From a virus (Duplodnaviria > Heunggongvirae > Uroviricota > Caudoviricetes): 22,993 nt of DNA. The DNA lies in the IMG/VR virus record IMGVR_UViG_2713896729_000008, positions 1 to 22,993 of that record. The stretch is one strand, 5' to 3'. Under the pieces are notes generated by a model, which made no database searches, had not been told where the DNA came from, and was given only the letters and a program-made list of their open reading frames with translations. Shown here piece by piece: positions 4,433-22,993 of the stretch. The translations under genes were made by a program, and so were the position numbers. The first letter of the stretch is position 1. Each line of letters starts with the position of its first letter.

Positions 4433-4498
4433 TCTTTTCCTTATTTTTTATTCTGTTGAGTGAATACGGGAAGCGTCTCCCGGAGGCCGGGGGTTAGT

Positions 4499-5411: not shown

Positions 5412-5449
5412 GACGTTGATCCCTTGCTGATAATATCGTTTTGACTGCG

Positions 5450-6085
5450 TCAGCAGTTACCGGTACGACGGCATAGCTCAGCAAGACTCTGCTGTGCCAC
5501 CCACTGTTGCAGTTCCCTGTCTTTTTCAGTACGCCGGGCTGCAAGCGCTGCCTGCTGCCGTTTGTTAACACAATTGTCCTTTACCATCATCATGACTTCC
5601 GGCGTGAACTGTTTTTTGAGTTCAGCCGCTTTTTCATCAACATTTTCAACGGCGGGATACTGGTAGAGCAGCTTGTCTTCAACGGCTGTCCAGTAGTTAG
5701 CCATCCGGTCATCAACGACAGCGAAATAACAGCCCTGTCCTTCATTATTGCCCTGATAAATAATCCGGAGATGTAGCGGATATTCGTCACGGGGTTTTAT
5801 ATCAATGTATCTGACCGTCAGGGATTTTTTGTCTGCCAGATAAAGCGAGCCTCCATCTCTGCTGCGAAGAAAAAAGTGATTCGTCCAGGGATAATTGTCG
5901 AGTACAACCGCCTGATAGAGTGCGTTATGCATATGGTTATCATCGTATCCATCAGCGGATTTCCAGCCATCTGCCTGCATGGACTTCCAGGTTCTGACTG
6001 AACCCACGATATTTTCAGCGAGGACCGGGGGCGCTGAGATAATGCTGAGACTGGCGACCAGCGCCGCTGTGATGAGTAATTTCAT
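5450..6085 (-). CDS. exported protein of unknown function
   Basis: 211-aa ORF; signal peptide MKLLITAALVASLSIISAPPVLA; start overlaps the stop of the upstream regulator gene by 4 nt (operon-like). Confidence 0.65.
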   Translation of the reverse strand: MKLLITAALVASLSIISAPPVLAENIVGSVRTWKSMQADGWKSADGYDDNHMHNALYQAVVLDNYPWTNHFFLRSRDGGSLYLADKKSLTVRYIDIKPRDEYPLHLRIIYQGNNEGQGCYFAVVDDRMANYWTAVEDKLLYQYPAVENVDEKAAELKKQFTPEVMMMVKDNCVNKRQQAALAARRTEKDRELQQWVAQQSLAELCRRTGNC

Positions 6086-6795: not shown

Positions 6796-7055
6796 GTATT
6801 ATCTCCGTGTTGGGTAAGTGATTAATTAAGAAGGTATTACTGTAAAGGATGAGACTGACAGGTTATGTCCGTGATACGTTGCGAAGCGCCTGGCGCGAAA
6901 AGGCCGTCTGGGTGCCCTGTTGGCAGCAGTAACGCGCTTATGACCGGTGGTATCTTTTGCTGGTGCAGACAGGTTATGTCTGCCACATAAAAATCATCTG
7001 CCGGATGATGAATAAACAGAGTCATTCACTACAGTCCTGATGACCTTTTACTCAT

Positions 7056-7931
7056 TCAGAAGAAGACCCAGTCCCAGACCGCGCGGGCTACAGACACCAC
7101 AGCATCACGCACGGTACGTATCACCGTCTTCAGCGGCGCAGGCAGGAATGACGATGATTCTGCCGTATCGAACACCAGCCCCACCGCCTCACCGAAGCCG
7201 TCACGGGCCTGCGACTTTACCGGCTCCGTGCAGAGCCTCCCGTGCAACTGTGTCGCCAGCGGGCTGGTGGCGCGGTCCGGAAGACAGCGCATCATGGTGC
7301 CCACCATCTCCTCAGTGCCCCATCCGGCCAGCGCGGACACCATGCAGACAGGATGATGTGGTTTAAACATCGCGGTAATGGCTACCTGCTTTTCCTGAAG
7401 ATTTGCCCATTGCTGTGCTGAAGGCGTGCTGGTTCGGGTATCCCATTCGTGGCAGGGTTCTATTTTGTCGGCCTGGTTAATCACGAACAACACCTGCTGC
7501 TGGTAAGGCTGCATCACGCCGCGCCAGAAATGCTCGTCCACCGACAGCGCCCGGTCATCGGCCTTAATGACCCACAACACCAGGTCCAGCTCCGGCAGCA
7601 TACGCCGGTACAGGGCGCGGTATTCCTGGTCCCGTTGTCCGTTTTCGCCCACGCCCGGCAAATCAACAATCACCAGACTGTGACGCCCGCTGCGTAGCCG
7701 GAAGCGCAGCACGGCACGGGTGCAGGCGTTCACATCACTGACGGCGGAGACTTTCCCCCGAAAGAGTTCGTTACAGAGCGACGACTTACCGACACCACTC
7801 TTGCCCATGATGCCAATCACCGGCTCGTAGTGGGTCAGATTCTGAATACGTTCAAGAATAAGCTGGCGAAGCGTATCGGGAAGCGACGACAGCGGTTGTT
7901 CAAGGGCCTGAAGGCCGTGTGGTTTAGTCAT
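7056..7931 (-). CDS. YfjP/YkfA/YeeP-family small GTPase (prophage-island GTP-binding protein)
   Basis: 291-aa ORF with G1 GIMGKSGVGKSS, G3 DLPGVGE and G4 NQADK motifs; size and motifs fit the cryptic-prophage GTPase family of E. coli. Confidence 0.75.
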   Translation of the reverse strand: MTKPHGLQALEQPLSSLPDTLRQLILERIQNLTHYEPVIGIMGKSGVGKSSLCNELFRGKVSAVSDVNACTRAVLRFRLRSGRHSLVIVDLPGVGENGQRDQEYRALYRRMLPELDLVLWVIKADDRALSVDEHFWRGVMQPYQQQVLFVINQADKIEPCHEWDTRTSTPSAQQWANLQEKQVAITAMFKPHHPVCMVSALAGWGTEEMVGTMMRCLPDRATSPLATQLHGRLCTEPVKSQARDGFGEAVGLVFDTAESSSFLPAPLKTVIRTVRDAVVSVARAVWDWVFF

Positions 7932-7948
7932 AAAGGATTCTCAGCGTG

Positions 7949-7989
7949 AAAAACAAAAATCCCCGCACTCCGGTCAGGGAGGCGGGGGA
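7949..7989 (-). terminator. candidate rho-independent terminator (minus strand)
   Basis: On the minus strand, a GC-rich imperfect hairpin (cccgcctcc ... ggagtgcggg) is followed by gatttttgttttt, about 60 nt downstream of the stop of the 8054-8881 gene. Confidence 0.45.
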
Positions 7990-8053
7990 TTCACGAAGAT
8001 AATATCTGTCTGAGATTATTTCGAATGAAGCTTATTGCTTCTGCCATATCACT

Positions 8054-8881
8054 TTATGATTGCCGTGATTGACTCTTCGCATCATTAAAAGCATTGTTAA
8101 TCAGTTCGTTAAGAATTTCCTTCGATGTGGTCTTCTCTACATGCGCAATAAACTCAAGTTTTTTTTGAGCCGCTTTGGTCAACTTCACAGCAGCTGGTTC
8201 CTTAGCTCTTCTGGCTCTTCTTTCCTTTTGCTCCCATGCATTTTTAAGCTCATCAAGAAGAATATCTTTATGATTTTTATTGATGCCATTTTCCGGCATG
8301 ATGCCATGTCCAAGAAACTTTCCTTTATTACGCCTTTTATTTTTGCCGTTAAGATAAGATTCCTGCTCGGTAGTCCATCCTTTCCAGTTATCAAAAATAG
8401 CAAAGATAAAATAATATTTCTCTTTATTATCATGTGGTTTTAATGGAATGCCTAAGCATCGTTCCTGCATTTGTTGCCATAACCACTGGCATTGAGTTTC
8501 ATCTTTGCTGTTAACCCATGAAAAAGGTGCTGGGTAAAGGGCGTACTGGTGACGCCATTCGATATCTATAGATGAGATTAAATTTGATATTTTTTGAGGC
8601 TTTTTTACGAAGGTTATCAACAGGTGTACGAATAAAGAAAAGCCAACGTTTCTCTCTGAGACATCCTTAATTCTTTTAAAAAGTAACCCGTTTGCATTTC
8701 TGATATTTTCAGGTGGAATTTTATCGGTCTTTTCTTTTTTATCTTGTTTACAGGTACTAAGGTTTATTTTCTCCGGGGACGAGAATGCGGAGGAAGAAGT
8801 TTTATTTTTAGCATCAATAGTACTGGATTGTTTATCAATAGTATCCACTAACTCAGCAGGAAGAGTCTGCGACCACGGCAT
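8054..8881 (-). CDS. hypothetical protein in AT-rich DNA, K/R-rich C-terminus
   Basis: 275-aa ORF in a visibly AT-rich stretch; no motif I recognise. C-terminal third is strongly basic (KNKRRNKGKF..., KERRARRAKEPAAVKLTKAAQKK). Confidence 0.5.
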   Translation of the reverse strand: MPWSQTLPAELVDTIDKQSSTIDAKNKTSSSAFSSPEKINLSTCKQDKKEKTDKIPPENIRNANGLLFKRIKDVSERNVGFSLFVHLLITFVKKPQKISNLISSIDIEWRHQYALYPAPFSWVNSKDETQCQWLWQQMQERCLGIPLKPHDNKEKYYFIFAIFDNWKGWTTEQESYLNGKNKRRNKGKFLGHGIMPENGINKNHKDILLDELKNAWEQKERRARRAKEPAAVKLTKAAQKKLEFIAHVEKTTSKEILNELINNAFNDAKSQSRQS

Positions 8882-8980
8882 AATATCGCGGGAAGGCTGA
8901 GTATATTGACTGGTGGATATAGGGTGATGCTGCCAACTTACTGATTTAGTGTATGATGGTGTTTTTGAGGTGCTCCAGTG

Positions 8981-8990
8981 NNNNNNNNNN
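8981..8990. other. assembly gap (10 N)
   Basis: Run of n. Confidence 0.95.
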
Positions 8991-9200
8991 GATGCTTATA
9001 TCGCAATAACTCCTGACACCTCAATATTACATATGGCAAGTGCCTATAATACCCCTGTTGTTGCAATTTATGCTGATTACAAAACGCGATGGCCCGCAAT
9101 GGCCGATGTCTCGGAGTCAGTCGTCGTTGGGCAAAAAATTGACAATATAAGTCTGGATGAATTCGCAAAGGCATTAAAAAGTGTTTTGGCGAGAATATGA
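8991..9200 (+). CDS. glycosyltransferase family 9 (heptosyltransferase-like) C-terminal fragment
   Basis: Frame open from the gap: DAYIAITPDTSILHMASAYNTPVVAIYADYKTRWP... resembles the conserved C-terminal nucleotide-sugar-binding segment of LPS heptosyltransferases. Confidence 0.5.
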   Translation, partial: DAYIAITPDTSILHMASAYNTPVVAIYADYKTRWPAMADVSESVVVGQKIDNISLDEFAKALKSVLARI

Positions 9201-9461
9201 GACAGTACTTATGCATAGTAATGCCGATCTGTTATGAACGGTGGTGTCATCAATACTCTGAGGCTGGTCAATCATCACAGAAAACCAGCCTTTAGATCAA
9301 AGCAGTACTCACCGAAAATGATCATAGTCACATCGAACGCGATTCTGGCGGTGCCGCATTTTTATTTATTCATTTTCTGTGAGAGAAGGGCTAGTTCTGT
9401 AGAGGGAATGTAAAAAAGAGTGCCCCGAATGGAACACTCTTTAAGAAATTATAACGGAAAA

Positions 9462-10317
9462 TCACAGGTTTTTATAACATGTCGCATAAGAAAACCCAAG
9501 CTTTTCAAATACGCTTTGATCACCTGTTGCCAGGGAAACTACGTATTGTTCGCTTGAGTTTGCGGGACTAGATGACCAATACATATTTGATTGAAAACCA
9601 GCGTCAGTCGTGTAATGCCCCATATCTCCCCATTCACTGTACAGTGACCCGATGCCTCGGGAACTACAGTGGTTTAAATAGTTTGCTCTGGGGAGCGTGT
9701 AGCCATTGCTGCTGCAAAAATTTTCAGCAAGGCTGTATATCATGAAAGCCTCGCCGGCGTTCACCCACCAACTCTTCACACGGATTTCGTATACATAGCT
9801 AGGGCCTCCTGATTTTGGCGTCGCCGTAATCCTTTCCGAATTGCTGCCGACATTTTTAAATGTCACTTTACCGGTAGCATCAACATCGACCCAGGAGGCA
9901 GAGCTTGAAAACTCATAATCAGCCGCCGTTTTTCCTGGGGCAAAGTTGTCATTATTCAACTGATAATACGCCCCGGTGAACCCCTGCGAAGGGAATGTAG
10001 TTGTCGGTAGGTCAGTACCATTGACTGATACTGTACCGCTCATTATTTTGTCTTCTGCGCGAGTGAATTGTATTGTGGTACTCAGACCAGCTTGATGAAC
10101 ACCATTCAATACAGGGATCAGCGTTGCGATACCCTCTCCGCCTCCTGTAACAGTGGCTTTGTAATCACCGTTGATATTTAGACTGTAATCAATTGCGCTA
10201 ATTTTTATATAGGGCACGTTAGTACCTGATTGCACAAATTCCATCCCTTCAGAAACTTTGATCGGATTGCCTGATATATCGTGCAGAACAAGACGTAATT
10301 CAGCACTATCGGTATAG
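9462..10317 (-). pseudogene. invasin/intimin-family adhesin, C-terminal portion, 5' end truncated by IS3
   Basis: Minus-strand frame is open from the stop at 9462 right up to the IS3 terminus at 10318 with no credible start (track starts at an internal Met, 10244). Contains a beta-rich Ig-like segment and a Cys-containing C-terminal domain (...NFCSSNGYTLPRANYLNHCSS...SYATCYKNL) reminiscent of invasin/intimin lectin-like domains. Confidence 0.5.
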
Positions 10318-10347
10318 TGATCCTACCCACGTAATATGGACACAGGC

Positions 10348-11214
10348 CTAAGCGAGGTTCTTGTTTTCAAATTGTTCCGGACTGAGGCCGCCACACCAAC
10401 TGTGCCGCCGCCACCGATTGTAATCACATTCGATATAATTAAACACCGTTGCCCGCATTATTTCCCGGCTGATAAAGTGTTCTCCATGGATACATTCCAC
10501 TTTCAGCGAATGAAAGAAGCTTTCCACGCAGGCATTATCGTAGCAGCAACCTTTTGCGCTCATACTTCCACGCAGATTATGCCGCTTCAGTTGCGCCTGA
10601 TAATCTGCTGAACAGTACTGGCCTCCACGGTCCGTGTGAACGATAACGTTCCGGGGCCTCTTACGCCGCCACAGCGCCATCTGCAGGGCATCGCAGGCCA
10701 GTTGCGCCGTCATGCGTGGCGACATTGACCAGCCAATAACGGCACGTGACCACAGGTCAATGACCACTGCCAGATACAGCCAGCCTTCATCTGTACGTAA
10801 GTACGTGATGTCTCCTGCCCACTTCTGGTTCGGGCCACTGGCGTAAAAATCCTGCTCCAACAGATTTTCTGACACAGGCAGGCCGTGTGCGCGGTAGCTG
10901 ACCGGGCTGAACTTCCGGGAGGCCTTTGCCCTCAGTCCCTGACGGCGCAGGCTTGCCGCCACGGTTTTTACGTTAAAGGGGTAACCCTGAGCACGCAGTT
11001 CATCCGTCAGGCGTGGGGCACCGTAACGCTGTTTTGACCGGGTAAAAGCCGCGAGGACAACGCTGTCGCAGTGTTGGCGGAACTGCTGACGCGTGCTTAT
11101 CCTTGTCCGCCGCTGACACCACGTATACCAGCCGCTGCGGGCCACCCGGAGCACGCGGCACATTGCTTTTATGCTGAACTCAGCCTGATGTTTTTCAATA
11201 AAGACATACTTCAT
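10348..11214 (-). CDS. insF: IS3 OrfB (InsF), DDE transposase catalytic region
   Basis: 288-aa [32 protein letters not shown]...[12 protein letters not shown] is recognisable as IS3 InsF; overlaps orfA by 4 nt. Confidence 0.85.
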
Positions 11215-11510
11215 TTCAGGCGCTTCGCGAAGTATGTCGCGGCCTTTTGGAGGATAGCCAGCTCTTCATCCCGTTCTGCCAGCTGGCGTTTGAGACGTGC
11301 AATCTCGGTAGACATCTCCAGTTCACGTTCAGAAGACGTCTGCTGATTTTGCTGTTTACTGCGCCAGTTGTAGAGTTGTGATTCATACAGGCTGAGTTCA
11401 CGGGCTGCGGCAGTAACACCGATGCGTTCAGCAAGCTTCAGGGCTTCACTGCGAAATTCAGGCGAATGCTGTTTACGGGGTTTTTTACTGGTTGATACTG
11501 TTTTTGTCAT
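11211..11510 (-). CDS. insE: IS3 OrfA (InsE), transposase N-terminal HTH protein
   Basis: [32 protein letters not shown]...ATYFAKRLK is recognisable as IS3 InsE; the track ORF begins two in-frame codons-plus upstream at 11519. Confidence 0.85.
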
Positions 11511-11575
11511 GTGAGTCACCTCTGACTGAGAGTTTACTCACTTAGCCGCGTGTCCACTATTGCTGGGTAAGATCA

Positions 11576-11902
11576 CTGAACCAGTGGGATGCGCTGTGCT
11601 ACTACTGTGAAGATGGCCTGGCAGAGCCTGATAACAACGCTGCCGAACGAGCCCTTCGTGCCGTCTGTCTTGGGAAAAAGAATTTTATCTTCTTCGGCAG
11701 CGACCACGGTGGTGAGCGCGGAGCCCTGCTGTACGGACTGATCGGGACGTGCAGGCTGAATGGTATCGATCCGGAAGCCTACCTTCGCCATATCCTGAGC
11801 GTACTGCCGGAGTGGCCCAGCAACAAAGTGGCCGAACTGCTGCCATGGAACGTGGTTCTTACCGATAAATAACCGTCAATACGGCGCTCACTTAACGCTT
11901 AC
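11576..11902 (+). mobile_element. IS66-family element remnant: transposase (TnpC) C-terminal 98 codons plus probable terminal repeat
   Basis: Frame open from the first base after IS3: ...DNNAAERALRAVCLGKKNFIFFGSDHGGERGALLYGLIGTCRLNGIDPEAYLRHIL...ELLPWN, stop at 11870-11872. This is the conserved IS66 TnpC C-terminal signature. The sequence ...cgcttac ending near 11902 is the reverse complement of the GTAAGCG IS66-type terminus. Confidence 0.75.
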
Positions 11903-12075
11903 AATTGGCGTTAGTGTTAGACATATATTCAAGCCTATCTCTTATCTGGAGATACAGCTACTGTCTGGTGTTTCAGGGGGCTACATTAGTAACAATCCTG
12001 ACACTGAGGGCATCAGGTCTTTCTTCAATCTCACACTCCGATTATCTGAGCAAAAATTTCTCTATATTTAGTGCA

Positions 12076-12103
12076 TTTACAAATATATCTGATTTCGTAA
12101 ACT
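12076..12103 (+). promoter_or_regulatory. candidate sigma70 promoter for the defence operon
   Basis: TTTACA (12076-12081), 16-bp spacer, TAAACT (12098-12103), in an AT-rich 270-bp intergenic region upstream of the SNF2 gene. By-eye hexamer match only. Confidence 0.25.
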
Positions 12104-12176
12104 AGATTTCAGAATTGAAAATTGGTTCTGAAAAAGGTAGACCAGTTTAGAACCTGAGCTGATTACAGGAAATGGA

Positions 12177-14027
12177 ATGGTTTATTCGATAAAACACGGC
12201 ATTGTCGAGCAGGACGGGTGTCCAATCGATCCCGAATTGCTTTTTAGACTTGGCAAATTTGTAGCTGAGGCTAGAGACAGCGAAACTACTTTGGTCATCT
12301 CAAAACGCCCAGCTGAACTGAAATTCCGGTTCAGCCATGAACCAGCGCCTTCATTCAGATTGTTTTTCAGGGAGGTAGAGCTTACTCCTGATCAGGTGAA
12401 TTCTTTGGTGGAATACGGTTATTTTATTGCTGATGGCAAGCGGGTGTATTTTGTCAGTGACAGACTTAAGGATTTCTCCGTATCTGCCTGCAACAAGCTG
12501 TCACTCCCCGGATTGCTCAAACTACTTCGCAAACTATACAATGATGGACTTATTGACGCTCTTCCATCATCCCTTGTAGAGAAGCTCAGGGCACAGCAGC
12601 AGAAAATATCACTCCACGATAAACTCTTTGTCAGGGAACTCTACCCCTACCAGAATGAAGGTGTTGCATGGCTGACCTTCTGTGCAGCCAACGGTGTGGG
12701 TACCATCCTTGCCGATGATATGGGTCTGGGTAAGACTGCTCAAGTAATTGCCCTGTGCTGCGATGTTCTCGAACACAATCCTGAAGGTAGGATCCTTATT
12801 GTTGTTCCCAATCCTCTGCTGGCCAACTGGATCAGAGAATTTTCTTTTTTTGCTCCTTCACTCAGACCTTTTCTCCATTATGGGCAGAACAGGAGCGGTC
12901 TCAGTTCAGATCTTTCCGAGCACAATATAATTGTTACTCCCTATACCGTATTGAGTTCCGATATTTCGATGCTGGAAGAAATCCCGTTTGACCTTGTACT
13001 TTATGATGAAGCCAGTATGCTGAAAAATCCTCAGTCGGGCAGATCTCTTGCAGCAAGACGTCTTGATTCTGTTGCTTCCGTTGCAATGTCGGGAACTCCT
13101 GTCGAGAACTGCCTTCTTGACGTCTGGGCTCTCTGTGACCTGGTTTTCCCCGGTTTTCTCGGAAACGAGCAGGATTTCAGATCTCGTTATGTCCATCGCG
13201 AACTGTCCAAAACGCTCAATACGGATCTACACGGGCTTGAAAACAGTCTCCGGCAGATAACCCTGCGACGTATGAAAAAAGATGTCCTGACACAGCTGCC
13301 TGAAAAAATGGATATTCACAGAGCTGTTACCGCAGGAGACAAGGAACGAAATACCTATGAATCCATCATTGAGGAGATGCAGCAGGATGCGGCAAAAGGA
13401 GGAGGAGGTATGCTACCCCTGATCAACAAACTACAGCAGTTTACTGCACATCCGGCTCTTCTAGATCCGAGCATACCCCATGATGTCAAATCCCTATGCC
13501 TCCACAGCGCCAAATTCGAACTACTGATGATGGAACTGGACGGCATAGAACAATCCGGAGAAAAAGTCATCATCTTTGCCACATTCCAGAAGGCAATCGA
13601 TCTGCTAGGTGCTGCAGTTAGGGAACGTTATGGCATCACCCCAGGAGTGATTGACGGACGGACTCCAAATGAACAACGGCAGCCGCTGATTGACAGATTT
13701 TCCAAATCGTCCGGATTCGATCTGCTGCTGTTGCACCCTAAAACAGCCGGTATGGGGCTAAATATCACCGCTGCCACCAATGTAATCCATTATTGCCGAC
13801 AGTGGAATCCGGCCCTTGAGGCACAGGCTACGGCAAGAGCATGGAGAAACGGACAGAAATCTGTGGTTAGCGTTTACTACATGTATTACGCGGATACTGT
13901 CGAAGAAATGATCGATGAACGGATACGAATGAAACAGAAGCTTAGCGAGCAGGTTGTTGCAGTGGCCGACTATAAAGAAACAGACAAACAGCTGATGCTG
14001 GAATATTTGGAATCGATAAAAAAATGA
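12177..14027 (+). CDS. SNF2-family helicase-like ATPase
   Basis: 616 aa; RBS aggaaa upstream of ATG. Motif I LADDMGLGKT, motif II LVLYDEASMLKN, motif III MSGTPVEN, motif V GMGLNITAATNV, motif VI QATARAWRNGQ. N-terminal ~150 aa without recognisable motif. Confidence 0.9.
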   Translation: MVYSIKHGIVEQDGCPIDPELLFRLGKFVAEARDSETTLVISKRPAELKFRFSHEPAPSFRLFFREVELTPDQVNSLVEYGYFIADGKRVYFVSDRLKDFSVSACNKLSLPGLLKLLRKLYNDGLIDALPSSLVEKLRAQQQKISLHDKLFVRELYPYQNEGVAWLTFCAANGVGTILADDMGLGKTAQVIALCCDVLEHNPEGRILIVVPNPLLANWIREFSFFAPSLRPFLHYGQNRSGLSSDLSEHNIIVTPYTVLSSDISMLEEIPFDLVLYDEASMLKNPQSGRSLAARRLDSVASVAMSGTPVENCLLDVWALCDLVFPGFLGNEQDFRSRYVHRELSKTLNTDLHGLENSLRQITLRRMKKDVLTQLPEKMDIHRAVTAGDKERNTYESIIEEMQQDAAKGGGGMLPLINKLQQFTAHPALLDPSIPHDVKSLCLHSAKFELLMMELDGIEQSGEKVIIFATFQKAIDLLGAAVRERYGITPGVIDGRTPNEQRQPLIDRFSKSSGFDLLLLHPKTAGMGLNITAATNVIHYCRQWNPALEAQATARAWRNGQKSVVSVYYMYYADTVEEMIDERIRMKQKLSEQVVAVADYKETDKQLMLEYLESIKK

Positions 14028-15622
14028 CAGATAAAATTGAATTACAGGAAAATGATTTCCGCCCTTCTGCTGCGAGGCTGGTCGAAAGCCTCCGTGATAC
14101 GGGATACAGTGAAAAAGCGGCATTTGCTGACATTGTAGACAATTCAATAGCAGCTAATGCTACGAAAATTGCCATCGAGCTCCAATATCTAATGGGTGAG
14201 TTCCGAGTAGTCATTACCGATAACGGTGATGGAATGACTGAGTCCGAGCTGAAGAATGCGATGCGGTACGGTTCCGAAAAACGGCCGAATCCGAAGTCAC
14301 TGGGCAAATTCGGAATGGGGCTGAAAACTGCGTCTACGGCATTCTGCCGTAGACTGGTGGTACTTTCACAGAAAGAAGGAACTGCAGTAGGCCGTATCTG
14401 GGATCTCGATACCATCAGTGAAAAAGATCGCTGGGAACTCGAGACCCCAGATGAAAACGACTATTACGACGATTTCGAAGTTCTTGAGGATTTCTCCGGA
14501 AATTCAGGCACCATGATTGTCTGGGAAAAAATTGATCGTCTGATCAAGCCAGGCAGCGATAGACAGATGCTTGATCAGATCCGGACCCTCGGTAAGGAAC
14601 TTGTTGACGAACTGAGTGCCGTCTTTTTCAAATATCTTTCCTCCGGAAACGTAGAAATTTCACTCAAAATTGCGGATGAACCCGAAATCCTTCTCCAAGG
14701 ATGGGATCCCCTGTCTACTGAACTTGTTACCAGTGGCGGGGCCCGTCCCCAGCTCTTGAAAGAAAAGAAAATCCGCGTCGAGTTCAACGGAAACAGCTAT
14801 TCTTTCACAATCAGAGGAAGCCTGATTCCATCGCAGAATGAGCTGACTGCGGAAGAGCAGGAGGCTGTGAGATACGGATTGGATAACCAAGGGTTCTATA
14901 TCTATCGAGAAGACCGGTTGATATGGAATGACGGCTGGCCTCACCGAATGTATAAAAAGGAAGGTAAGATCACCCGTCTGCGTGTCGAGCTGGTTTTCTC
15001 CCATGAACTTGATGATGTATTCAGTATCGATTTCCGCAAAAGCCGAGTGATAATCCCTGTTGAAATCCGTAGGGAACTGCAGTCGCTGATTGCTCCATGG
15101 CGTCAGGCACTACTTTCCGTTCCGTCAAAAAAACAATCTGAACAGTCCGGTTCGACACGTGCACATGGTCCTGCTGATAATGCGATAGATAAGCAGAAAA
15201 ACCGTACAAAAAACTCCGATATAAAGGTTGATGGCGAAACAGTTACTATCAGAAACCAGAACCAGCCCAAACCTGCAGTAATCAACGATATACGCGTCTA
15301 TGAGGACAAGACTGTCAGGGTTCACGAAGAAAACTCCCTGATGGGTGACAATCTCTGGGAACCGTCATGTGACATTGATGGAAACACCTGCGTAACACTT
15401 GGGAAGTCGCATCCATATTTCCTGAGAATGTATGATGTCTGCAAGGACAATGTAGAAGCCATGAAAGCTCTCGACATGCTTCTGTGGAGCCTTGCAAATG
15501 CCGAACATGGTGAATACTCAGAAGCGAACAAGCACACCCTGAAAGGATTCCGCCAGAAGGTCAGTGAGAGTCTTCGTTATCTCAGCCTTGAACTGCCGGA
15601 TCCGGAAGAGGATTCAGAATGA
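14024..15622 (+). CDS. GHKL (Bergerat-fold) ATPase, MutL/MORC-like
   Basis: 532 aa; ATG overlaps the SNF2 stop (ATGA). N-box DIVDNSIAANATKIAIEL (compare MutL ELVENSLDAGAT), G1 box VITDNGDGM, G2 box GKFGMGLK. C-terminal ~300 aa unassigned. Confidence 0.85.
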   Translation: MTDKIELQENDFRPSAARLVESLRDTGYSEKAAFADIVDNSIAANATKIAIELQYLMGEFRVVITDNGDGMTESELKNAMRYGSEKRPNPKSLGKFGMGLKTASTAFCRRLVVLSQKEGTAVGRIWDLDTISEKDRWELETPDENDYYDDFEVLEDFSGNSGTMIVWEKIDRLIKPGSDRQMLDQIRTLGKELVDELSAVFFKYLSSGNVEISLKIADEPEILLQGWDPLSTELVTSGGARPQLLKEKKIRVEFNGNSYSFTIRGSLIPSQNELTAEEQEAVRYGLDNQGFYIYREDRLIWNDGWPHRMYKKEGKITRLRVELVFSHELDDVFSIDFRKSRVIIPVEIRRELQSLIAPWRQALLSVPSKKQSEQSGSTRAHGPADNAIDKQKNRTKNSDIKVDGETVTIRNQNQPKPAVINDIRVYEDKTVRVHEENSLMGDNLWEPSCDIDGNTCVTLGKSHPYFLRMYDVCKDNVEAMKALDMLLWSLANAEHGEYSEANKHTLKGFRQKVSESLRYLSLELPDPEEDSE

Positions 15623-16542
15623 ATTATGAATACGATCTGGCCGATTTCAAACGTTACCTTTACGACAAAAACCACAGTTACAGGGTAGATGGACTGATTT
15701 TCTGGCAGAACAGGATTCCGTTGCCGATTGACCTGTTCAATCGAATATTCGATGAATCAGATCTGATAATTGCAGATTTTGTTTATCAGGTAGCAGCAAG
15801 CGCTGCCGTTTTCAGCGAAAAAGAGTCATTCGAGAGTACCTTCGGGCTGGAAGTGACAAATCTTCCAACCGACAAGCTTAAAGCGGAAATACCAGCACTG
15901 TCCACGTGGGTGGATGAACATCTGCCTGAAAATTGCAGAATTGTCCGTATGATATATGAAATCGCGGAGCTTCTGGGCCTTTCAGAGTTCAGGTTTTCCG
16001 GTGATAGGATCGCAAAATCGCTTGCTCACCAAGGGAAAAAGTATGCCCGTCTATTCATGCCGAGTCCGGTAAAGGATCTGGTGAACAACATTCAGGGATG
16101 TGACACCATCGGGCAGGACAATACTGACATGTTCGGTAATATCATTGCCGACCGTTATAATATTTACCGTTCAGGTTTCAGTGATGCCTTGGCTATCATA
16201 TTCAATGCCCTACTCGAATTTAGGCTCCTGTTTTCTGGAAAAAGCGGCAATCTGCCTAGATTTAGGGTAATGATGACTGCTCCTGACGACATCGATATTC
16301 GTTTCGGTAAAACAGCCGACGGTTCATTGTGGGAACCTGGTTACGGGGACGATCATTTCATTACCATCAATACTGAACATCCCGTGATGAAAAATCAGGC
16401 GAAAGACCAGGGCTGTGCACTGGCCGAATTGCTGTTTTTTATGGGGCAGTATGAAAACTCTCAGTTTTCGGACCAGAACAAGAAATTTATTGAAAACATG
16501 CGACAGACAATATCCAGAAATCTCTGGATCAAGTATGACTAA
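15619..16542 (+). CDS. hypothetical protein, operon partner of unknown function
   Basis: 307 aa; ATG overlaps the GHKL stop (ATGA); same strand and frame-coupled inside the operon; no motif I recognise. Confidence 0.7.
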   Translation: MNYEYDLADFKRYLYDKNHSYRVDGLIFWQNRIPLPIDLFNRIFDESDLIIADFVYQVAASAAVFSEKESFESTFGLEVTNLPTDKLKAEIPALSTWVDEHLPENCRIVRMIYEIAELLGLSEFRFSGDRIAKSLAHQGKKYARLFMPSPVKDLVNNIQGCDTIGQDNTDMFGNIIADRYNIYRSGFSDALAIIFNALLEFRLLFSGKSGNLPRFRVMMTAPDDIDIRFGKTADGSLWEPGYGDDHFITINTEHPVMKNQAKDQGCALAELLFFMGQYENSQFSDQNKKFIENMRQTISRNLWIKYD

Positions 16543-16569
16543 TTTTTCTCATGCAAGGACGGGACAAGT

Positions 16570-18510
16570 ATGCTTTCAGAACTGGATATGGTGATGAACT
16601 GGTTCAAAAATGAACCTGAATCGGCATGGCAATTCGATGAGATCGGATTCGATGATGAAACAAGAACGGTTCTATCAACAACCGGACTGACATTGCTGGA
16701 CCATACAGCACGGATGAAAACTGGAAGCGGGTATCACTGTTATATACCATGCCAGTATCTGATGTATATGCTAAAGATTGGGCCATTTGTAAGACTACTG
16801 GACAACTACATCTCTGTATTCGAAGAAATCAAAAAAAATATGTTTCCGGCAGAATTCGAAGCAATGATCGAAAGCGGAACGTCAAACGAGCAGGCGCTCG
16901 TTTCGCTGGACATCTACAGCCGCAGTAACTTTTTCTGGGCTTTCAAAGATCCCAGAACAAGACTTGAGGCAAAAAATCTAATAAACACGAGCTCAAAAAC
17001 TGGGAAAAAGAGTTATAGGCAATCCGATGATTTTGTCAAATCGGTCTTGCTGGCATCATTGCCGGTCCCGAATGTAAGCTCGGAAACACTCGGTACCCTG
17101 ATTCTTGATCTGGTGCGTTCTCAAGAAACATATGATTACCTTCAAAGGAGATATATGCCCAGTCTTCCTTATATGTTCAGTGTTCCTGATGGGGATGAAC
17201 TGCTGTTCAGAATAATGACAACCATTGGCTGGTCCGGTCAGTTTGAGCCTTTACTGGGGACTGACCCCGATGCCGAATTTGTTTCATGGAATGATATAGA
17301 CAGGGCATTTCTTCTCCGCCCATCCAGGGAACCCGGCAATGCGCTGTATGTCCAGAATCCCGTCCATTTTTCTGTTCCGCTGGAGAAATATATTTTCATC
17401 AGAAAGGGTCTCTTGGATACTCCCGATTCACTTGAAAAAATATCGGTTCTGGTTTCCGGTTTATGGCTGGGGATGAGTATCCGGAACAGAGAGGGCAAGT
17501 TCTTTTTCGAGTCATCGACCAGAGCCTCCGTATCCGGACCTAGAGTGACCGGTGGAACGAACAGAATCTTCTATGGGGCACCCGGTACGGGAAAAAGCTA
17601 CAGGGTCCATGGTGAAATGAGTGACGGTGCAGAAAAGATTGTCACAGTTTTCCATCCTGATACTCAGCATAACGATTTTGTCGGTGCCCTGAAGCCTAAA
17701 ATGGAAAAGAATGAACAGGGAGAAAGCAGCATAACCTACAGTTTCAGACCAGGCCCCTTTACCTGCGCACTCATACTGGCCATTGCTCGTCCAGACAGAA
17801 AGGTCTGTCTCATTATCGAAGAAATCAACCGTGCTTCTGCTGCAGCTGTCTTCGGCGAGCTTTTCCAGCTTCTAGACAGGGAGCCTGATGGAACGAGTAC
17901 CTACAGCATCAATGCCACTGATCCGGATATGATCGAGTATATAAATACGGAACTAGGTACTATGGGATGTACTCCTGTCGATAGCTTACGGATCCCGTCC
18001 AATATGTCTCTACTGGCTACCATGAACAGCAGTGATCAGGCAGTTATGCCGCTGGATACTGCATTCAAACGGCGCTGGAATTTCGAATATCTACCAATCG
18101 ATTTATCAAAACCGGAGATCCCACAAACCGAAATCGTTTTCACCACCAATTCAGGAAAATATTCGGTACTCTGGCGCGATTTTGCTCAAATTATTAATGA
18201 CACCCTTGTCGAATGTGAAATAGCAGAGGATCGTCTGATCGGCCCGTTTTTCCTAGATTCTAAAGAACTGGAAAATAGGGAAGCAGCGAAAGCTGCCCTT
18301 GGCGGAAAACTGTTCATCTATTTGTGGGATGATGTGCTGAGACATGTCGGACACCAGAAAATATTTGCGTCTACCTTCAGAACGTTCGGCAACCTATCTG
18401 CAGCATTTCGCAATGACATGGCTGTTTTCTCCACTGCCGTAGAGAACAGACTTGAAGGGGTGGGCACTCCTGTTGACATGAACAGGGATCCGCAAGATGT
18501 TGCCAGCTGA
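16570..18510 (+). CDS. McrB-like AAA+ GTPase with unrelated N-terminal domain
   Basis: 646 aa. C-terminal half has Walker A RIFYGAPGTGKSY, Walker B CLIIEEINRASAAAVFGELFQLLDRE (McrB DEINRA-type signature) and MSLLATMNSSDQ...DTAFKRRW. N-terminal ~330 aa has no resemblance I can see to the E. coli McrB DNA-binding domain. Confidence 0.85.
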   Translation: MLSELDMVMNWFKNEPESAWQFDEIGFDDETRTVLSTTGLTLLDHTARMKTGSGYHCYIPCQYLMYMLKIGPFVRLLDNYISVFEEIKKNMFPAEFEAMIESGTSNEQALVSLDIYSRSNFFWAFKDPRTRLEAKNLINTSSKTGKKSYRQSDDFVKSVLLASLPVPNVSSETLGTLILDLVRSQETYDYLQRRYMPSLPYMFSVPDGDELLFRIMTTIGWSGQFEPLLGTDPDAEFVSWNDIDRAFLLRPSREPGNALYVQNPVHFSVPLEKYIFIRKGLLDTPDSLEKISVLVSGLWLGMSIRNREGKFFFESSTRASVSGPRVTGGTNRIFYGAPGTGKSYRVHGEMSDGAEKIVTVFHPDTQHNDFVGALKPKMEKNEQGESSITYSFRPGPFTCALILAIARPDRKVCLIIEEINRASAAAVFGELFQLLDREPDGTSTYSINATDPDMIEYINTELGTMGCTPVDSLRIPSNMSLLATMNSSDQAVMPLDTAFKRRWNFEYLPIDLSKPEIPQTEIVFTTNSGKYSVLWRDFAQIINDTLVECEIAEDRLIGPFFLDSKELENREAAKAALGGKLFIYLWDDVLRHVGHQKIFASTFRTFGNLSAAFRNDMAVFSTAVENRLEGVGTPVDMNRDPQDVAS

Positions 18511-19771
18511 TATTCTGTATCTTTCAGACAGGACACCTGTCACCGATCGCAGTATTCCTGCGACCGTGCTCGATGAGCTGAGAAACAGGGGGCTGCTGGC
18601 CCCCGACATGCAGAAAATCCATTTCTGTGGAGTCATGTCTTTCAGTGGAGGTCTGGCTGTATTTCTGCCACGAAATAACAGTTCTTCTCGTGAATCGCAG
18701 GCTCTTTCAGCACATTATCTGCTCCGCTCACTCCTGAAATTCTACCGAGATAGAGACACCGGTGTTTTTGATGGGGATGCAGGAACCGGACTTATCGGTG
18801 GTGAATCCCTGTCGTTGGCAACTGCACTGATTGACGACTATCAGACGAATGGTCTCTATGTCCGCCGGATTAGAGTCGATACAACCAACTCCGGAAAAGT
18901 TGTATGGCCGGAGACAATTGCCCGAGGGACTGCCTATACTAGCCCATCTGGGCCTGTATATATCGATCCTGTAACCACACGTTCGCGCTACCTCACCGAT
19001 AGCGAGACAGCAAAGATTCATGCCTCTGTAATGAGGGAGCTCTATCCGGTATACGGAATGCTCTGGACAGGCAGTCAGGGCACTCCTGAACGACTGCAGA
19101 ATGTTCCGCGTCCTGAGGGAAATGTTTTCTCATGGGTTGTACACCTAAGAAGAGAACTGCAGTTCAGCTATTCCGAAAGGGATATTTTCCTTTTGCGGAG
19201 ACTGATCATGTATCTTGAAACAGGGAGAGGAATGCGGAATGGCGGGGTTCTTATCGGTGTCAGGAAGTTTCACAGTCTGTGGGAAGCCATGCTGGATGAA
19301 TGCTTGGTGGGTAAATACCGAGTTAACAATAAATTGCCTATTCCCGTGTATCGGGCCGGCAGTGACAGGTTTGTTCCCGTTGCCAACAAGAGCCAGAGAA
19401 CGGATACGGTTCTCCACAATGCAGAAAAAACGCACGTCGCGATCATAGATGCCAAATACTATGATGCGAAGACACCGGATAGTGCTCCTGGTTGGCCGGA
19501 TCTGGTAAAACAGTTTTTCTACCAGAAGGCGCTTTCTTACCTAGTGCCGGTCGGTACCCACATCACAAACCATTTCATTTTTCCTGGAACAGAAAAGCCA
19601 CTCAGGGCTGTCCATGTTGCGGAAAGGGGAAAGGTTCTGGTTACAGAAGCTGACTGTCTGTCCGAATATCCGCCGATTCATTGCCATTACCAGGATCCCC
19701 TAGAACTACTTCGGCTGTATTCAACAGGAGAAAAGCTGGTAGAACTGACCCGCGAAATTTTTACAGTCTGA
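18497..19771 (+). CDS. McrC-like PD-(D/E)xK nuclease subunit
   Basis: 424 aa; start overlaps the McrB-like stop by 14 nt (mcrBC-type arrangement); contains ...TDTVLHNAEKTHVAIIDAKYYD, fitting the (I/V)DxKY nuclease motif of McrC and LlaJI.R2. Confidence 0.7.
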   Translation: MLPADILYLSDRTPVTDRSIPATVLDELRNRGLLAPDMQKIHFCGVMSFSGGLAVFLPRNNSSSRESQALSAHYLLRSLLKFYRDRDTGVFDGDAGTGLIGGESLSLATALIDDYQTNGLYVRRIRVDTTNSGKVVWPETIARGTAYTSPSGPVYIDPVTTRSRYLTDSETAKIHASVMRELYPVYGMLWTGSQGTPERLQNVPRPEGNVFSWVVHLRRELQFSYSERDIFLLRRLIMYLETGRGMRNGGVLIGVRKFHSLWEAMLDECLVGKYRVNNKLPIPVYRAGSDRFVPVANKSQRTDTVLHNAEKTHVAIIDAKYYDAKTPDSAPGWPDLVKQFFYQKALSYLVPVGTHITNHFIFPGTEKPLRAVHVAERGKVLVTEADCLSEYPPIHCHYQDPLELLRLYSTGEKLVELTREIFTV

Positions 19772-19883
19772 AAAGATTCGGACTATGCCCAGAAATGTCG
19801 ATAGACATGAGACCCCCTCATTGATTGATCATCCGTACAGTGATACTATCGCCGGGAATAAAACCGGATAAGGTGAGCATGGG

Positions 19884-21200
19884 ATGGACAGTAAGAATAA
19901 ATTCCAATATATCAAAAATATGAGAAAAAAATTAGGCATAGGTCGCACCGAATTTGCCAATCTTCTCGGACTCGGTGCCACCGGAGAACGTACAGTCCGA
20001 GGATGGGAAGAAGAGGAACATGAACCGTCTTCCGCCAAATGGCAGGCCATTCTCGATGTGGAAAAGAAGATGACTGAATATCTGGAAAACGCACCTTTCC
20101 GCCAGAAGCCTGAAAATGAATGCAATTTCACCTTCATCGATCTGTTTGCTGGTATCGGAGGTATTCGTCTTCCTTATCAGCAGCAGGGAGGGCACTGTGT
20201 ATTCTCATCCGAATGGGACAAGTTCTCCCAGAAGACCTATCTAACGAATTTCGGCGAAATGCCCCAAGGTGACATCACTAGAATTCCGGCATCCGACATT
20301 CCTGATCACGATGTACTGCTTGGCGGATTTCCATGCCAGGCTTTTTCACAGGCCGGTTTGAAAAAAGGTTTCAGCGATACCCGTGGAACCATGTTCTTCG
20401 AAATTCAGCGGATAATGACAGCCAAGCGTCCAAAGGCATTCATGTTGGAAAATGTCAAGCAACTGCAGGGACATGATAAGGGTCGTACCCTGAAAACCAT
20501 TCTCGATATCCTGCGGGGCAATGGAACCCATTCCGTTCCGGACGATATCCCGATTAGTGAGGATGCCCGCAATGCTCTGTCCGAAAAACTCAATTACTGG
20601 GTTGATTACCGTGTACTGCGTGCAGGTGACTTCGGTGCCCCCCAGAACCGTGAACGTATTTTCATCGTTGGTTTTGACCGTGACTATTATAGGGGCGTGG
20701 ATTTCGACAGTGTATTCAGATGGCCGGTACCTCCTATGACTCCGACCCGTGTTGGTGACATTCTGGAAGACCTCGATCGTCTGCCTCTATCACAAGACAG
20801 ATATACCATCTCGGATAGACTGTGGATAGGCCACCAGAAACGGAAACTGGAACACGAAAAGAAAGGTAACGGTTTCGGCTATTCTCTTTTCAACAAGGAC
20901 AGCGAATACACTAATACCATCAGTGCACGTTATTACAAGGACGGCTCCGAAATCCTGATTGACCAGTCACATTTGGGTAGGAACCCACGCAAGCTAACTC
21001 CGCGCGAATGTGCACGTCTACAGGGATTCCCTGACGACTACATCGTCGATGCTGTTTCACAGGGCCAGATCTACAAGCAATTTGGCAACTCTGTCTGCAT
21101 GAATGTCATCCGTGCTGTCTCGGAACAGTTGGTCGAAACTATGAAAAAAGCCGAAATACTGGCTGGTAAGAACCAGGGTCTGGAGCGAACAGCAGGCTAA
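19884..21200 (+). CDS. DNA (cytosine-5) methyltransferase with N-terminal XRE-type HTH domain
   Basis: 438 aa; RBS aaggtgag. N-terminal HTH-like KKLGIGRTEFANLLGLGATGERTVRGWE. C5-MTase motifs I FIDLFAGIGGIRL, IV GGFPCQAFSQAG, VI FMLENVKQL, VIII QNRERIFIVG, IX RKLTPRECARLQGFPDDY, X KQFGNSV. Confidence 0.9.
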   Translation: MDSKNKFQYIKNMRKKLGIGRTEFANLLGLGATGERTVRGWEEEEHEPSSAKWQAILDVEKKMTEYLENAPFRQKPENECNFTFIDLFAGIGGIRLPYQQQGGHCVFSSEWDKFSQKTYLTNFGEMPQGDITRIPASDIPDHDVLLGGFPCQAFSQAGLKKGFSDTRGTMFFEIQRIMTAKRPKAFMLENVKQLQGHDKGRTLKTILDILRGNGTHSVPDDIPISEDARNALSEKLNYWVDYRVLRAGDFGAPQNRERIFIVGFDRDYYRGVDFDSVFRWPVPPMTPTRVGDILEDLDRLPLSQDRYTISDRLWIGHQKRKLEHEKKGNGFGYSLFNKDSEYTNTISARYYKDGSEILIDQSHLGRNPRKLTPRECARLQGFPDDYIVDAVSQGQIYKQFGNSVCMNVIRAVSEQLVETMKKAEILAGKNQGLERTAG

Positions 21201-21540
21201 TGACCCTGCAGTGGAAGAAAATGTCGTGATGTGATGCCCCCTTTCCTGAAGCAGCCAATGTAATACTGCCACAGTTTGCGTTTGCTATGGGAGTAAATCA
21301 CATCACTACATATGTAGCCTTTTCATTATCACAATATTCCTCAGTGTTAGACTGAATACTGCGCCATCCACTTCCTATCTGATGGCTTCACCACTTTTTT
21401 GCCAATCTAAGAATCCCAGCAAAACGGCCCATCCACTTTTAGAGATCTTCCGACTGATCTTGACCCGCCATCTCCGGACAGCTTTTGTAGCTAAAATTAA
21501 CGATGCTCGCTGCCGCCGGTATTCTCTCGGAAAGACATAT

Positions 21541-21563
21541 CCCACCCGCACAGTGCGGGTGGG
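21541..21563. repeat. 23-bp perfect palindrome between convergent methyltransferase and integrase genes
   Basis: cccacccgcac-a-gtgcgggtggg: 11-bp arms, single-base centre; no flanking T-run on either strand. Confidence 0.6.
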
Positions 21564-21730
21564 AGACTGATTTAGTCATCATCTTTCCTGTCTCTATTTT
21601 CTTCCTAACTGGCATCTAGGCTACAAAGATAAACTTCCGCCTATGGAACAGAGCTGCCTGCAGATTAGGTTTAGCTCTGTGCCAGAGCTGTGTCAGATCA
21701 AATCTGAGCTAATATATTTAAACACATATG

Positions 21731-22993
21731 CTACATATTACCCCGGTTGATCTTCGCATAGTCAAACGGCGTAATTCCCCTTTCCCGATTGGCATCCAGA
21801 AAATCAGCCCACCACTGCAACATCAGCTTGCGCTCATCCAGATGTTCCGCTTTATGAATATACGCCGCCCTCACCGAATTGCGTTCCATATGGCTCATCT
21901 GCCGTTCTACCGCATCTCTGGACCAAAGACCTGACTCAATCAACGAACTACAGGCCATTGCCCGGAAGCCGTGACCACAGACATCGACCTTTGTATCATA
22001 GCCCATCAGACGCAGTGCGTTATTTACAGTGTTCTCACTCATGGGTTTCCATGGATTGTGATCGCCGGTGAAAATCAGTTCATGTTCTCCGCTGATAGTG
22101 TGGATCTGCTTCAGTATATTCACCGCCTGAGTAGATAGTGGCACAAGATGCTCTGTTCGCATTTTTGAGCCACGATGGGAATACTTGACCCCTTCAATAG
22201 GTTTCCGCTCAGGAGGAATGGTCCACATGGCTTTCTTGAAGTCGATCTCAGACCACCTGGCAAAGCGTAGTTCGCTGGAACGGATGAAGATAAGCAGGGT
22301 GAGTTTAGTTGCCTGCCGGGTGAGAGGTTGTCCTCTGTAGGCATCCAGTCGTTCAAGAAGCTCTGAAATGCGATTTAAGGCGAGGGCAGGGCGGTGCTGG
22401 CGTTTCACTGTGGTTAACGCGCCAGCCATATCCAAGGCAGGGTTATAGGTGATAATGCCTGACTGGGCAGCATAGCGCATGATTGCAGTGATACGCTGCT
22501 GAAGGCGCGCTGCGATTTCATATATCTCCTTTGCTTCGGCTGCTTTAACGGGAACAAGTAAATCGGGAGTCCTGAGGGTGGTAATGTCACGTGAACCAAT
22601 AAAGGGGAAAACATGAGTTTCGAGGCTTTTCAGTATCCTCTCATTGTGTGAGGCTGACCATTTTTTGTTGCTCTTATGCCACTGTCTTGCGATGCCTTCA
22701 AATGTCTGAGCTGTTTCGGGTACCGACTTTTTGATCCTTTTCTGTTCGCATGGGTCAGTTCCCTCAGCTATCAGCTTTCTCGCCGTATCGCGTTTTTCCC
22801 TTGCTTCTGATAACGAGACTTCAGGATAGACCCCCAGAGCGAGCGTTTTCTCTTTGCCCAGAAACCGATAGCGGAGCCGCCAGTAGCGAGAGCCGTTAGG
22901 GTGAACGAGCAAGAACATGTTGCCGCTGTCGGCAAGTTTATAAGGTTTTTCATCCGGTTTAGCGGCACGGATTTTAGCGTCAGTGAGCGCCAT
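21731..22993 (-). CDS. int: P4-type tyrosine integrase (site-specific recombinase)
   Basis: 420 aa; N-terminal arm-binding region MALTDAKIRAAKPDEKPYKLADSGNMFLLVHPNGSRYWRLRYRF typical of the P4 Int / IntA family; catalytic region with HGFRAM (HxxR) and RAAYIH (Tyr). The start codon is the final three bases of the window. Confidence 0.9.
   Translation of the reverse strand: MALTDAKIRAAKPDEKPYKLADSGNMFLLVHPNGSRYWRLRYRFLGKEKTLALGVYPEVSLSEAREKRDTARKLIAEGTDPCEQKRIKKSVPETAQTFEGIARQWHKSNKKWSASHNERILKSLETHVFPFIGSRDITTLRTPDLLVPVKAAEAKEIYEIAARLQQRITAIMRYAAQSGIITYNPALDMAGALTTVKRQHRPALALNRISELLERLDAYRGQPLTRQATKLTLLIFIRSSELRFARWSEIDFKKAMWTIPPERKPIEGVKYSHRGSKMRTEHLVPLSTQAVNILKQIHTISGEHELIFTGDHNPWKPMSENTVNNALRLMGYDTKVDVCGHGFRAMACSSLIESGLWSRDAVERQMSHMERNSVRAAYIHKAEHLDERKLMLQWWADFLDANRERGITPFDYAKINRGNM

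Follow-up and report, generated by a model that had tools for sequence, protein, structure and literature searches.

The 22,993-nt window analysed here (the whole stretch formed by positions 1 to 22,993 of IMG/VR virus record IMGVR_UViG_2713896729_000008, classified as Caudoviricetes) carries a gene pair for an McrB-like NTPase and a LlaJI/McrC-type nuclease. The pair forms the 3' half of an operon of five genes (SNF2, MORC, X307, McrB and LlaJI), which a C5 DNA methyltransferase gene completes to a six-gene unit. We consider it fairly probable that the unit is a methylation-protected LlaJI-class restriction-modification (RM) system arranged around an SsoII-like CCNGG C5 methylase, with SNF2, MORC and X307 as an accessory module. 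According to the list of open reading frames, the six genes are tightly packed on the + strand and span positions 12177 to 21200. The successive junctions from SNF2 to MORC, X307, McrB and LlaJI are a 4-nt overlap, a second 4-nt overlap, a 27-nt gap and a 14-nt overlap, and the SNF2, MORC and X307 genes are translationally coupled to the McrB-LlaJI pair. A further 112 nt separate the stop codon of the LlaJI-like gene from the start of the methylase gene.

The McrB-like protein and its nuclease partner

The McrB-like protein comprises 646 aa (16570–18510, + strand), with an McrB-type AAA+ module, a predicted GTPase, and the C-terminal region encoded at 17530–18510. Pfam AAA_5 covers residues 333–502, and the solved structures matched by sequence were McrB proteins only (E 3.5e-8 to 5.9e-6), including McrB of E. 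coli (6hz4, E 3.5e-8, aligned to residues 323–509) and of T. gammatolerans. The Walker A (GAPGTGKS), Walker B (IIEEINR), NxxD signature (MNSSDQ) and arginine-pair (FKRRW) motifs are invariant in 19 relatives, the NxxD signature being a hallmark of McrB-like GTPases (PMC11090510).

The overlapping downstream gene (18497–19771, + strand) encodes a 424-aa LlaJI.R2/McrC-type PD-(D/E)xK nuclease that matches Pfam RE_LlaJI (PF09563) over residues 43–367 with 111.6 bits against a cut-off of 23.6 (E 6.2e-32). A single-sequence search of the PDB with this LlaJI-like protein returned no match, and the profile of its family matched McrC chains only (6ut5_G, E 2.3e-4; E. coli McrC, E 0.02–0.03). The profile alignment takes in the D...DAKYY nuclease motif, of which D303 and D318-A-K320-Y-Y are invariant in the relatives. 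The pair thus has the arrangement of LlaJI-type systems, with an McrB-related AAA+ NTPase gene directly upstream of an R2 gene whose product belongs to RE_LlaJI, and at the same time the McrBC combination of an NxxD-bearing McrB AAA+ module and an McrC PD-(D/E)xK partner.

The N-terminal 320 residues of the McrB-like protein gave a confident model that matches no solved fold. The comparison with solved structures revealed no SRA, YTH, EVE or PUA-like fold and no McrB-N domain, hence none of the modified-base readers of Type IV McrBC systems (McrB-N, YTH, EVE or SRA-like); a B3-type domain such as that of LlaJI.R1 was likewise not found. Sequence matches to the region are rare, with just 43 among 1.84 billion cluster representatives (phmmer), of which about five cover residues 1–318 and about 25, from proteins of 650–790 aa, cover only residues ~20–205. 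By sequence comparison, the region is made up of two parts, namely a subdomain A that is common to simpler relatives (~residues 1–200; 16570–17169, + strand) and a lineage-specific subdomain B (~residues 200–320; 17170–17529, + strand). Residues 21–193 are related to the ~230-aa N-domains of the three-gene and type-B loci described below (hhalign probability 98%, E 7.5e-14), and partial matches to the N-domain were found with hmmsearch in loci L029, L035, L021, L058 and L048. A second, ~150-aa class of N-domain in three-gene loci is unrelated to that of the window (hhalign probability 1–9%). Subdomain B has no relative among solved structures and, among complete proteins, is present only in the McrB-like proteins of the window-type six-gene family, being missing in six-gene loci of type B such as L030. 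Wherever the full N-domain occurs and the flanking DNA is long enough, SNF2, MORC and X307 are present as well. Judged by these relationships, subdomain A is the best candidate for DNA or target binding and subdomain B is a candidate contact surface for SNF2, MORC and X307.

The original prediction, made from the letters of the window, had placed an McrBC-like pair at 16570–18510 and 18497–19771 beside an m5C (5-methylcytosine) methyltransferase at 19884–21200, and had seen no likeness of the first ~330 residues of the McrB-like protein to the McrB modification-reading domain. The pair is borne out by the AAA_5 assignment, the McrB matches in the PDB, the RE_LlaJI assignment and the McrC profile matches, and the methyltransferase by its match to Pfam DNA_methylase (E 1e-94); the fold comparison agrees with the third statement, as no modification-reading fold was retrieved among solved structures.

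The methylase, its predicted target and its operator

The sixth gene (19884–21200, + strand) encodes a 438-aa C5 DNA methyltransferase fused to a helix-turn-helix (HTH) domain, so that a cognate m5C methylase lies within the locus as in LlaJI-type systems, and this linkage is kept in six-gene and three-gene relatives. The protein is 52% identical to the pKPN2 methylase over residues 10–420, including the N-terminal HTH (residues 10–57 align with residues 9–56 of the pKPN2 protein). Methylase genes of the pKPN2 type and of identical length are present on small plasmids of Shigella, E. coli and Enterobacter, and we take the pKPN2-type sequence to be of the SsoII/Kpn2kI/Ecl18kI type. Identity is higher, at 64%, to an Acinetobacter plasmid methylase that is paired with a 'LlaMI family' endonuclease. 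In a study of a Psychrobacter plasmid, G(K/N)GFx13T(I/L)x3YYK was proposed as the signature of CCNGG methylases and their HTH_XRE N-termini were noted (PMC3346939). The target-recognition domain of the window methylase reads GNGF-x13-TI-SAR-YYK, and with both this signature and an N-terminal HTH the enzyme is predicted to be SsoII-like with specificity C-m5C-NGG, the base methylated by M.SsoII being the inner C of CCNGG. The core of the target-recognition domain (residues 341–360) is 93–97% conserved in six-gene and three-gene loci alike.

Those CCNGG sites that read CCWGG, one half of them, are already methylated by E. coli Dcm on this cytosine, and DNA of a dcm+ host would therefore be only partly sensitive. 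The window itself contains 71 CCNGG sites against 85 ± 9 expected, a depletion that is not significant.

An operator-like quasi-palindrome, TATCCGGTTTTAttCCCGGCGATA (19847–19870, - strand), ends 13 nt before the methylase start codon. The conserved pattern of this element, directly 5' of the start codon, is TATCCGGTTTTT-nn-CCnGG..., and the 12-mer TATCCGGTTTTT occurs, exactly or with one mismatch, at the same position beside the methylase gene in three- and six-gene loci. Loci in which the methylase and SNF2 genes are divergent have two operator copies ~63 bp apart, the second just upstream of SNF2. The window lacks this second copy and has an IS3-family element and an IS66-like remnant upstream of SNF2 instead; since the divergent promoter region is missing as well, the five-gene operon may owe its expression to other signals here. 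The regulatory site of M.SsoII served as the model for reading the element as an operator (PMC3978073), and the window sequence differs from the SsoII site AGGACAAATTGTCCT. By analogy, the methylase probably also controls expression, through its N-terminal HTH and the adjacent operator-like element.

The operator is followed in many loci by a conserved CACTGTATAT (L004 5516–5535, L011 ~5511–5530 and equivalents). The L011 site is a perfect CTGT-N8-ACAG, resembling a LexA box, several other loci are one mismatch away from it, and the window copy is degenerate (cactgtacgg). A LexA box was not adopted for this element, as its right half differs from one locus to the next and the surroundings of the window operon contain none; CACTGTATAT could be an SOS box or merely the -10 region of the restriction operon promoter.

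SNF2, MORC and X307

The first gene of the operon (12177–14027, + strand) encodes a 616-aa SNF2-family ATPase with Pfam SNF2-rel_dom (E 4.5e-50) and Helicase_C (E 7.5e-19) domains, and its motifs DDMGLGKT, DEAS and QATARAWRNGQ are invariant in 23 loci. Assignment to ZorD, DrmD or DpdE was rejected, with scores of 252 against a cut-off of 1500, 68 against 950 and 41 against 500, respectively, that reflect the shared SNF2 core only.

The second gene (14024–15622, + strand) encodes a 532-aa prokaryotic MORC-type GHKL ATPase (Pfam HATPase_c_3, E 4.3e-30). For the MORC-specific S5 motif, Iyer et al. 2008 (PMC2292703) gave the pattern GhXhhpXXRhl; residues 290–300 of the protein read GFYIYREDRLI, a match that is conserved in 23 loci, and the protein therefore combines the GHKL module and S5 motif that characterise prokaryotic MORCs. 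Its GHKL motifs, among them the N-box DIVDNSIAANA (residues 36–46), are invariant in the same number of loci. The protein is most similar to MzaB and is related to that family without being a member (NCBIfam MzaB, 170 bits against a cut-off of 850); on curated cut-offs, an assignment of the GHKL gene or the SNF2 gene to Mza, Zorya or DISARM was rejected. The N-box has an Asp at the position of the usual catalytic Glu, again invariant in 23 loci, and is without the aspartate usually found after the Asn.

The third gene (15619–16542, + strand) encodes X307, a 307-aa protein whose fold has no known match and which was not found among viral contigs. The C-terminal third of X307 is poorly modelled (predicted local distance difference test below 50), and residues 226–255 are dense in invariants (D226, R228, T232, D234, G235, W238, P240, Y242, H246, H254 and P255). 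This stretch may be a metal- or partner-binding segment that becomes ordered only in a complex. Family and fold searches recognised no nuclease family or fold in SNF2, MORC or X307. Across the operon and the methylase, the catalytic motifs of all five enzymes are invariant in 19–23 loci.

Six-gene relatives, three-gene relatives and decayed loci

At 37–89% identity to the window, all six genes occur together in V. cholerae, Yersinia enterocolitica, ten further species (from a scan with one genome per species), metagenomes (contigs found by searching with X307) and a V. vulnificus plasmid, and the genera represented include Vibrio, Yersinia, Shewanella and Aeromonas. Outside the set that we call type B, SNF2, MORC, X307 and the methylase are 61–89% identical to their counterparts in the window, whereas the N-domain and the nuclease, the closest relatives aside, reach only 36–58%. 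The methylase gene is divergent and upstream of SNF2 in most six-gene loci, and co-directional and downstream in the window, L010 and L016. Type B comprises the six-gene loci L030, L108, L110 and L112, in which the three extra proteins are 44–57% identical to those of the window and the McrB N-region measures ~230 aa; two of these loci, L108 and L110, have McrB-LlaJI in inverted orientation with respect to the three extra genes. All sampled X307 loci that extend far enough on their flanks contain McrB, LlaJI and the methylase (Dcm).

A simpler arrangement is found in ~30 loci, mainly from Gammaproteobacteria, which consist of the methylase, McrB-like and LlaJI-like genes only. Their methylases are mostly 59–81% identical to that of the window and usually divergent and directly adjacent, and their McrB N-domains fall into at least two unrelated classes (~230 aa and ~150 aa). 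Taken over nearly all gammaproteobacterial relatives, an SsoII-like methylase stands beside McrB/LlaJI in several gene orders, with 59–89% identity to that of the window and 35% in one case.

In the decayed loci L015, L090 and L008, the methylase is the gene left intact. L015 has frameshifted SNF2 and MORC genes and no nuclease gene, L090 (V. vulnificus plasmid pFORC54, 32.6 kb, six-gene unit at 1122–10698) has its McrB-like gene in fragments, and L008 (Xenorhabdus anantnagensis) has a frameshifted SNF2 gene. The only truncated methylase gene that is not due to a contig end, in L023, adjoins truncated McrB and LlaJI genes. At 193–11911, L008 also holds a complete three-gene system (methylase, short McrB-like and LlaJI-like genes) beside SNF2, MORC, X307 and a McrB-like gene with the full N-domain, the latter without a nuclease gene of its own; the locus may represent an intermediate of recombination or a hybrid in decay. 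In L090, the remnant of a 'type II restriction endonuclease' (114 aa) flanks the intact methylase gene on its other side, a hint that the methylase once had a Type IIP partner.

Relation to known systems

The window resembles LlaJI (Lactococcus lactis pNP40, with a homolog in H. pylori) in joining an McrB-related NTPase, an RE_LlaJI nuclease and one or more m5C methylases. The substrate of LlaJI is unmodified DNA, and methylation prevents its action; an asymmetric site is read by the N-terminal B3 domain of the R1 subunit, and the system needs two methylases (PMC12707154). The window, in contrast, has a single SsoII-like methylase with a predicted palindromic site and an N-domain that is not B3-like, and its unit adds SNF2, MORC and X307.

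E. coli McrBC likewise has an AAA+ ring with NxxD and arginine fingers and a McrC-type PD-(D/E)xK partner, but differs from the window in having no cognate methylase, in attacking methylated DNA and in the fold of its N-domain. The absence of a cognate methyltransferase that marks McrBC does not hold here, as almost every close relative has a linked methylase gene. In the AAA+ module, the window has EE in Walker B where E. coli McrB has DE, and its signature is followed by Q instead of R. Methylase-associated McrBC clades are known to exist and were left to a later paper by Bell et al. 2024 (PMC11090510).

On the methylase side, the Type IIP systems SsoII, Ecl18kI, Kpn2kI, ScrFI and LlaMI (CCNGG) have the HTH, the CCNGG signature and the operator beside the methylase gene in common with the window. 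SsoII-type systems pair this methylase with a small Type IIP endonuclease, whereas its partner in the window is predicted to be an NTP-driven multi-protein machine. BsuMI of Bacillus subtilis is reported to unite m5C methylases with a restriction operon of three genes, McrB-like and LlaJI-like subunits among their products; its methylases and its site are other than those of the window, and we know of no SNF2 or MORC genes in it.

Prokaryotic MORCs were predicted by Iyer, Abhiman and Aravind in 2008 to work with superfamily 2 (SF2) helicases, including SNF2, and with nucleases and cytosine methylases in RM systems (PMC2292703). The operons described there share with the window the grouping of a MORC GHKL ATPase, an SF2 ATPase and a C5 methylase in what is predicted to be an RM context, and the Mza system resembles it in its GHKL protein, MzaB being the closest to that of the window. 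In view of the 2008 predictions, the grouping of a GHKL and an SF2 ATPase with a nuclease about a C5 methylase is a recurring design. Automated annotation gives less detail, in that PADLOC v2 calls the McrB-LlaJI pair only generic Type II restriction enzymes and has no model for X307, and RefSeq names the relatives 'LlaJI family restriction endonuclease' and 'McrB family protein'.

Proposed mode of action

Under the reading that we favour, the methylase would mark host DNA and would regulate expression through its N-terminal HTH and the operator beside its own gene. The cutting engine would be formed by a McrB-type ring, the predicted GTPase, and the McrC/LlaJI-type PD-(D/E)xK nuclease. The SNF2 translocase, the MORC GHKL ATPase and X307 would make up an accessory DNA-handling module that serves this engine by translocation or clamping, with subdomain A of the McrB-like protein binding DNA or the target and subdomain B contacting the extra proteins.

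Methylation most likely blocks cleavage, because unmodified DNA is the substrate of LlaJI, to whose family the nuclease belongs, because the methylase is linked in essentially all close relatives and has a Type II-like regulatory architecture, and because in decay the restriction side breaks while the methylase stays intact. The original prediction had proposed LlaJI/BsuMI-type logic for the pair, with an N-terminal domain that recognises an unmodified site and an adjacent methyltransferase that blocks cleavage. That logic gains from the RE_LlaJI nuclease, from the linked SsoII-like methylase with its HTH and operator, and from the persistence of the methylase in decay; the pair, however, is not a unit by itself and is part of a six-gene unit. 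A further suggestion, that the m5C mark of the island could itself be a target for a host-encoded classical McrBC, appears unlikely. E. coli McrBC needs R-m5C (R, purine), and the predicted C-m5C-NGG has a C, not a purine, 5' of the methylated base. Attack by McrA or Mrr on some C-m5C-NGG sites is possible.

McrB-LlaJI may be physically coupled to the three extra proteins. Over two independent systems, a single composite machine, or at least an obligate accessory module, is favoured by the lack of a recognisable nuclease in SNF2, MORC and X307 and by the constant company of X307 with McrB-LlaJI. In the more far-reaching version, which we put forward tentatively, all five proteins are one machine, in which a MORC clamp and an SNF2 translocase are docked via X307 and subdomain B on the McrBC-type, GTP-driven nuclease and cleavage is licensed by missing C-m5C-NGG methylation; subdomain A would then be a new fold that reads a short unmethylated site.

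Several observations weigh against the functional assignments made above. The type-B loci (L030, L108, L110 and L112) keep the three extra genes without subdomain B, which weakens the case for subdomain B as an obligatory docking site, and the N-domain and LlaJI evolve fastest (37–58% identity, against 61–77% for the three extra proteins), which fits poorly with a simple adaptor to a conserved partner. Unrelated N-domains accompany the same methylase type, and the equal conservation of methylase target recognition beside them implies either that several folds read the same site or that reading takes place elsewhere; the N-domain may thus not be the site reader. Three-gene systems are common, from which it follows that the McrB-LlaJI engine can presumably work alone. 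The CCNGG assignment, finally, is based on 52–64% identity and a published signature.

Alternative explanations

The commonness of three-gene systems also bears on the view that two modules share one methylase, namely a complete McrB-LlaJI RM system and an independent Mza-like SNF2-MORC-X307 system whose nuclease or effector would be X307 or an unrecognised domain. The inversion of McrB-LlaJI relative to the extra genes in L108 and L110 points the same way. We nevertheless regard such independence as unlikely, given that no sampled locus with enough flanking DNA has X307 without McrB-LlaJI, that the X307 and McrB-like genes lie 27 nt apart in the same operon, that McrB residues ~200–320 exist only alongside the three extra genes, and that SNF2, MORC and X307 contain no recognised nuclease family or fold to act as the separate effector. 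It is less likely still that SNF2, MORC and X307 are a guard or back-up that comes into play when the engine or methylase is blocked, as by an anti-restriction protein or hypermodified cytosines, or that they exert self/non-self control at hemimethylated DNA. Such a role would be in keeping with the dispensability of the extra proteins in three-gene relatives, with rapid evolution of an N-domain and a LlaJI exposed to an arms race beside conserved extra proteins, and with the view of MORC and SNF2 as ATP-driven DNA remodellers tied to methylases in predicted RM operons (PMC2292703), but it is purely inferential, with no sensor domain identified and no trigger suggested by the sequences.

The AAA+ and nuclease modules are of McrBC type and the N-domain is without assigned function, which leaves room for a classical Type IV, modification-dependent McrBC beside an unrelated methylase, the new N-domain reading some modified base. 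We judge this highly improbable. The same methylase family adjoins in nearly every close relative and in several arrangements, with regulatory features typical of RM systems; the nuclease is a LlaJI-family member; by comparison with solved structures, none of the SRA, YTH, EVE and PUA-like folds was recognised in the N-domain; and a nuclease that attacks its neighbour's own mark would be self-destructive.

Genomic setting

The six-gene unit is cargo of an integrative island. One edge of the island is a P4-type tyrosine integrase gene (21731–22993, - strand; Pfam Arm-DNA-bind_3, Phage_int_M and Phage_integrase) that continues to the end of the window and shares 98.8% identity with chromosomal integrase genes of E. 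coli, and the other end carries a P4 alpha-like primase (165–2147). The cargo (12000–21300) had no megablast match in 5,426 complete E. coli genomes, in which the integrase alone matches. X307 was found at 99% identity on a record from E. coli, and the whole unit at 97–100% identity on a 937-kb metagenome contig.

The IS3-family element upstream of SNF2 occupies 10348–11519 (orfB 10348–11214, orfA 11211–11519), and what looks like the remaining end of an IS66-type transposase gene lies at ~11560–11872, just 5' of the SNF2 gene. Elsewhere the island holds a WYL/HTH regulator (6082–6795), a YeeP-like GTPase (7056–7931), a low-GC stretch (8000–9500, GC 0.37–0.39) and an invasin/intimin-like fragment (9462–10244). 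A strong GC-rich hairpin of 11 pairs between the methylase and integrase genes (21540–21564) is likely a terminator that separates cargo from integrase. A promoter and terminator scan gave matches at chance level.

Significance

The core of the unit is already known as a LlaJI-class system. We found no description or experimental study of a MORC, SNF2 and McrBC-type unit in the searchable literature, where the fixed SNF2-MORC-X307 association, the two-part N-domain without a known fold and the use of one SsoII-like methylase for several nuclease partners all appear to be undescribed. Methylase-linked McrBC relatives are numerous yet hardly described (PMC11090510). Nuclease partners of at least four kinds share the SsoII-like CCNGG methylase as their hub: McrB-LlaJI, the six-gene unit, small Type IIP enzymes and the Mza module.

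The locus is compact, comes from an E. coli-type island and has, by its motifs, every enzyme apparently active; it could serve for studying the contribution of MORC and SNF2 to a restriction nuclease and for asking how a McrB ring targets unmethylated DNA without a known reader domain. If the five proteins are indeed one machine, they would represent a new class of composite restriction enzyme, and would provide an experimentally tractable bacterial counterpart, native to E. coli, of the partnership of MORC, SNF2 and 5-methylcytosine in eukaryotic silencing.

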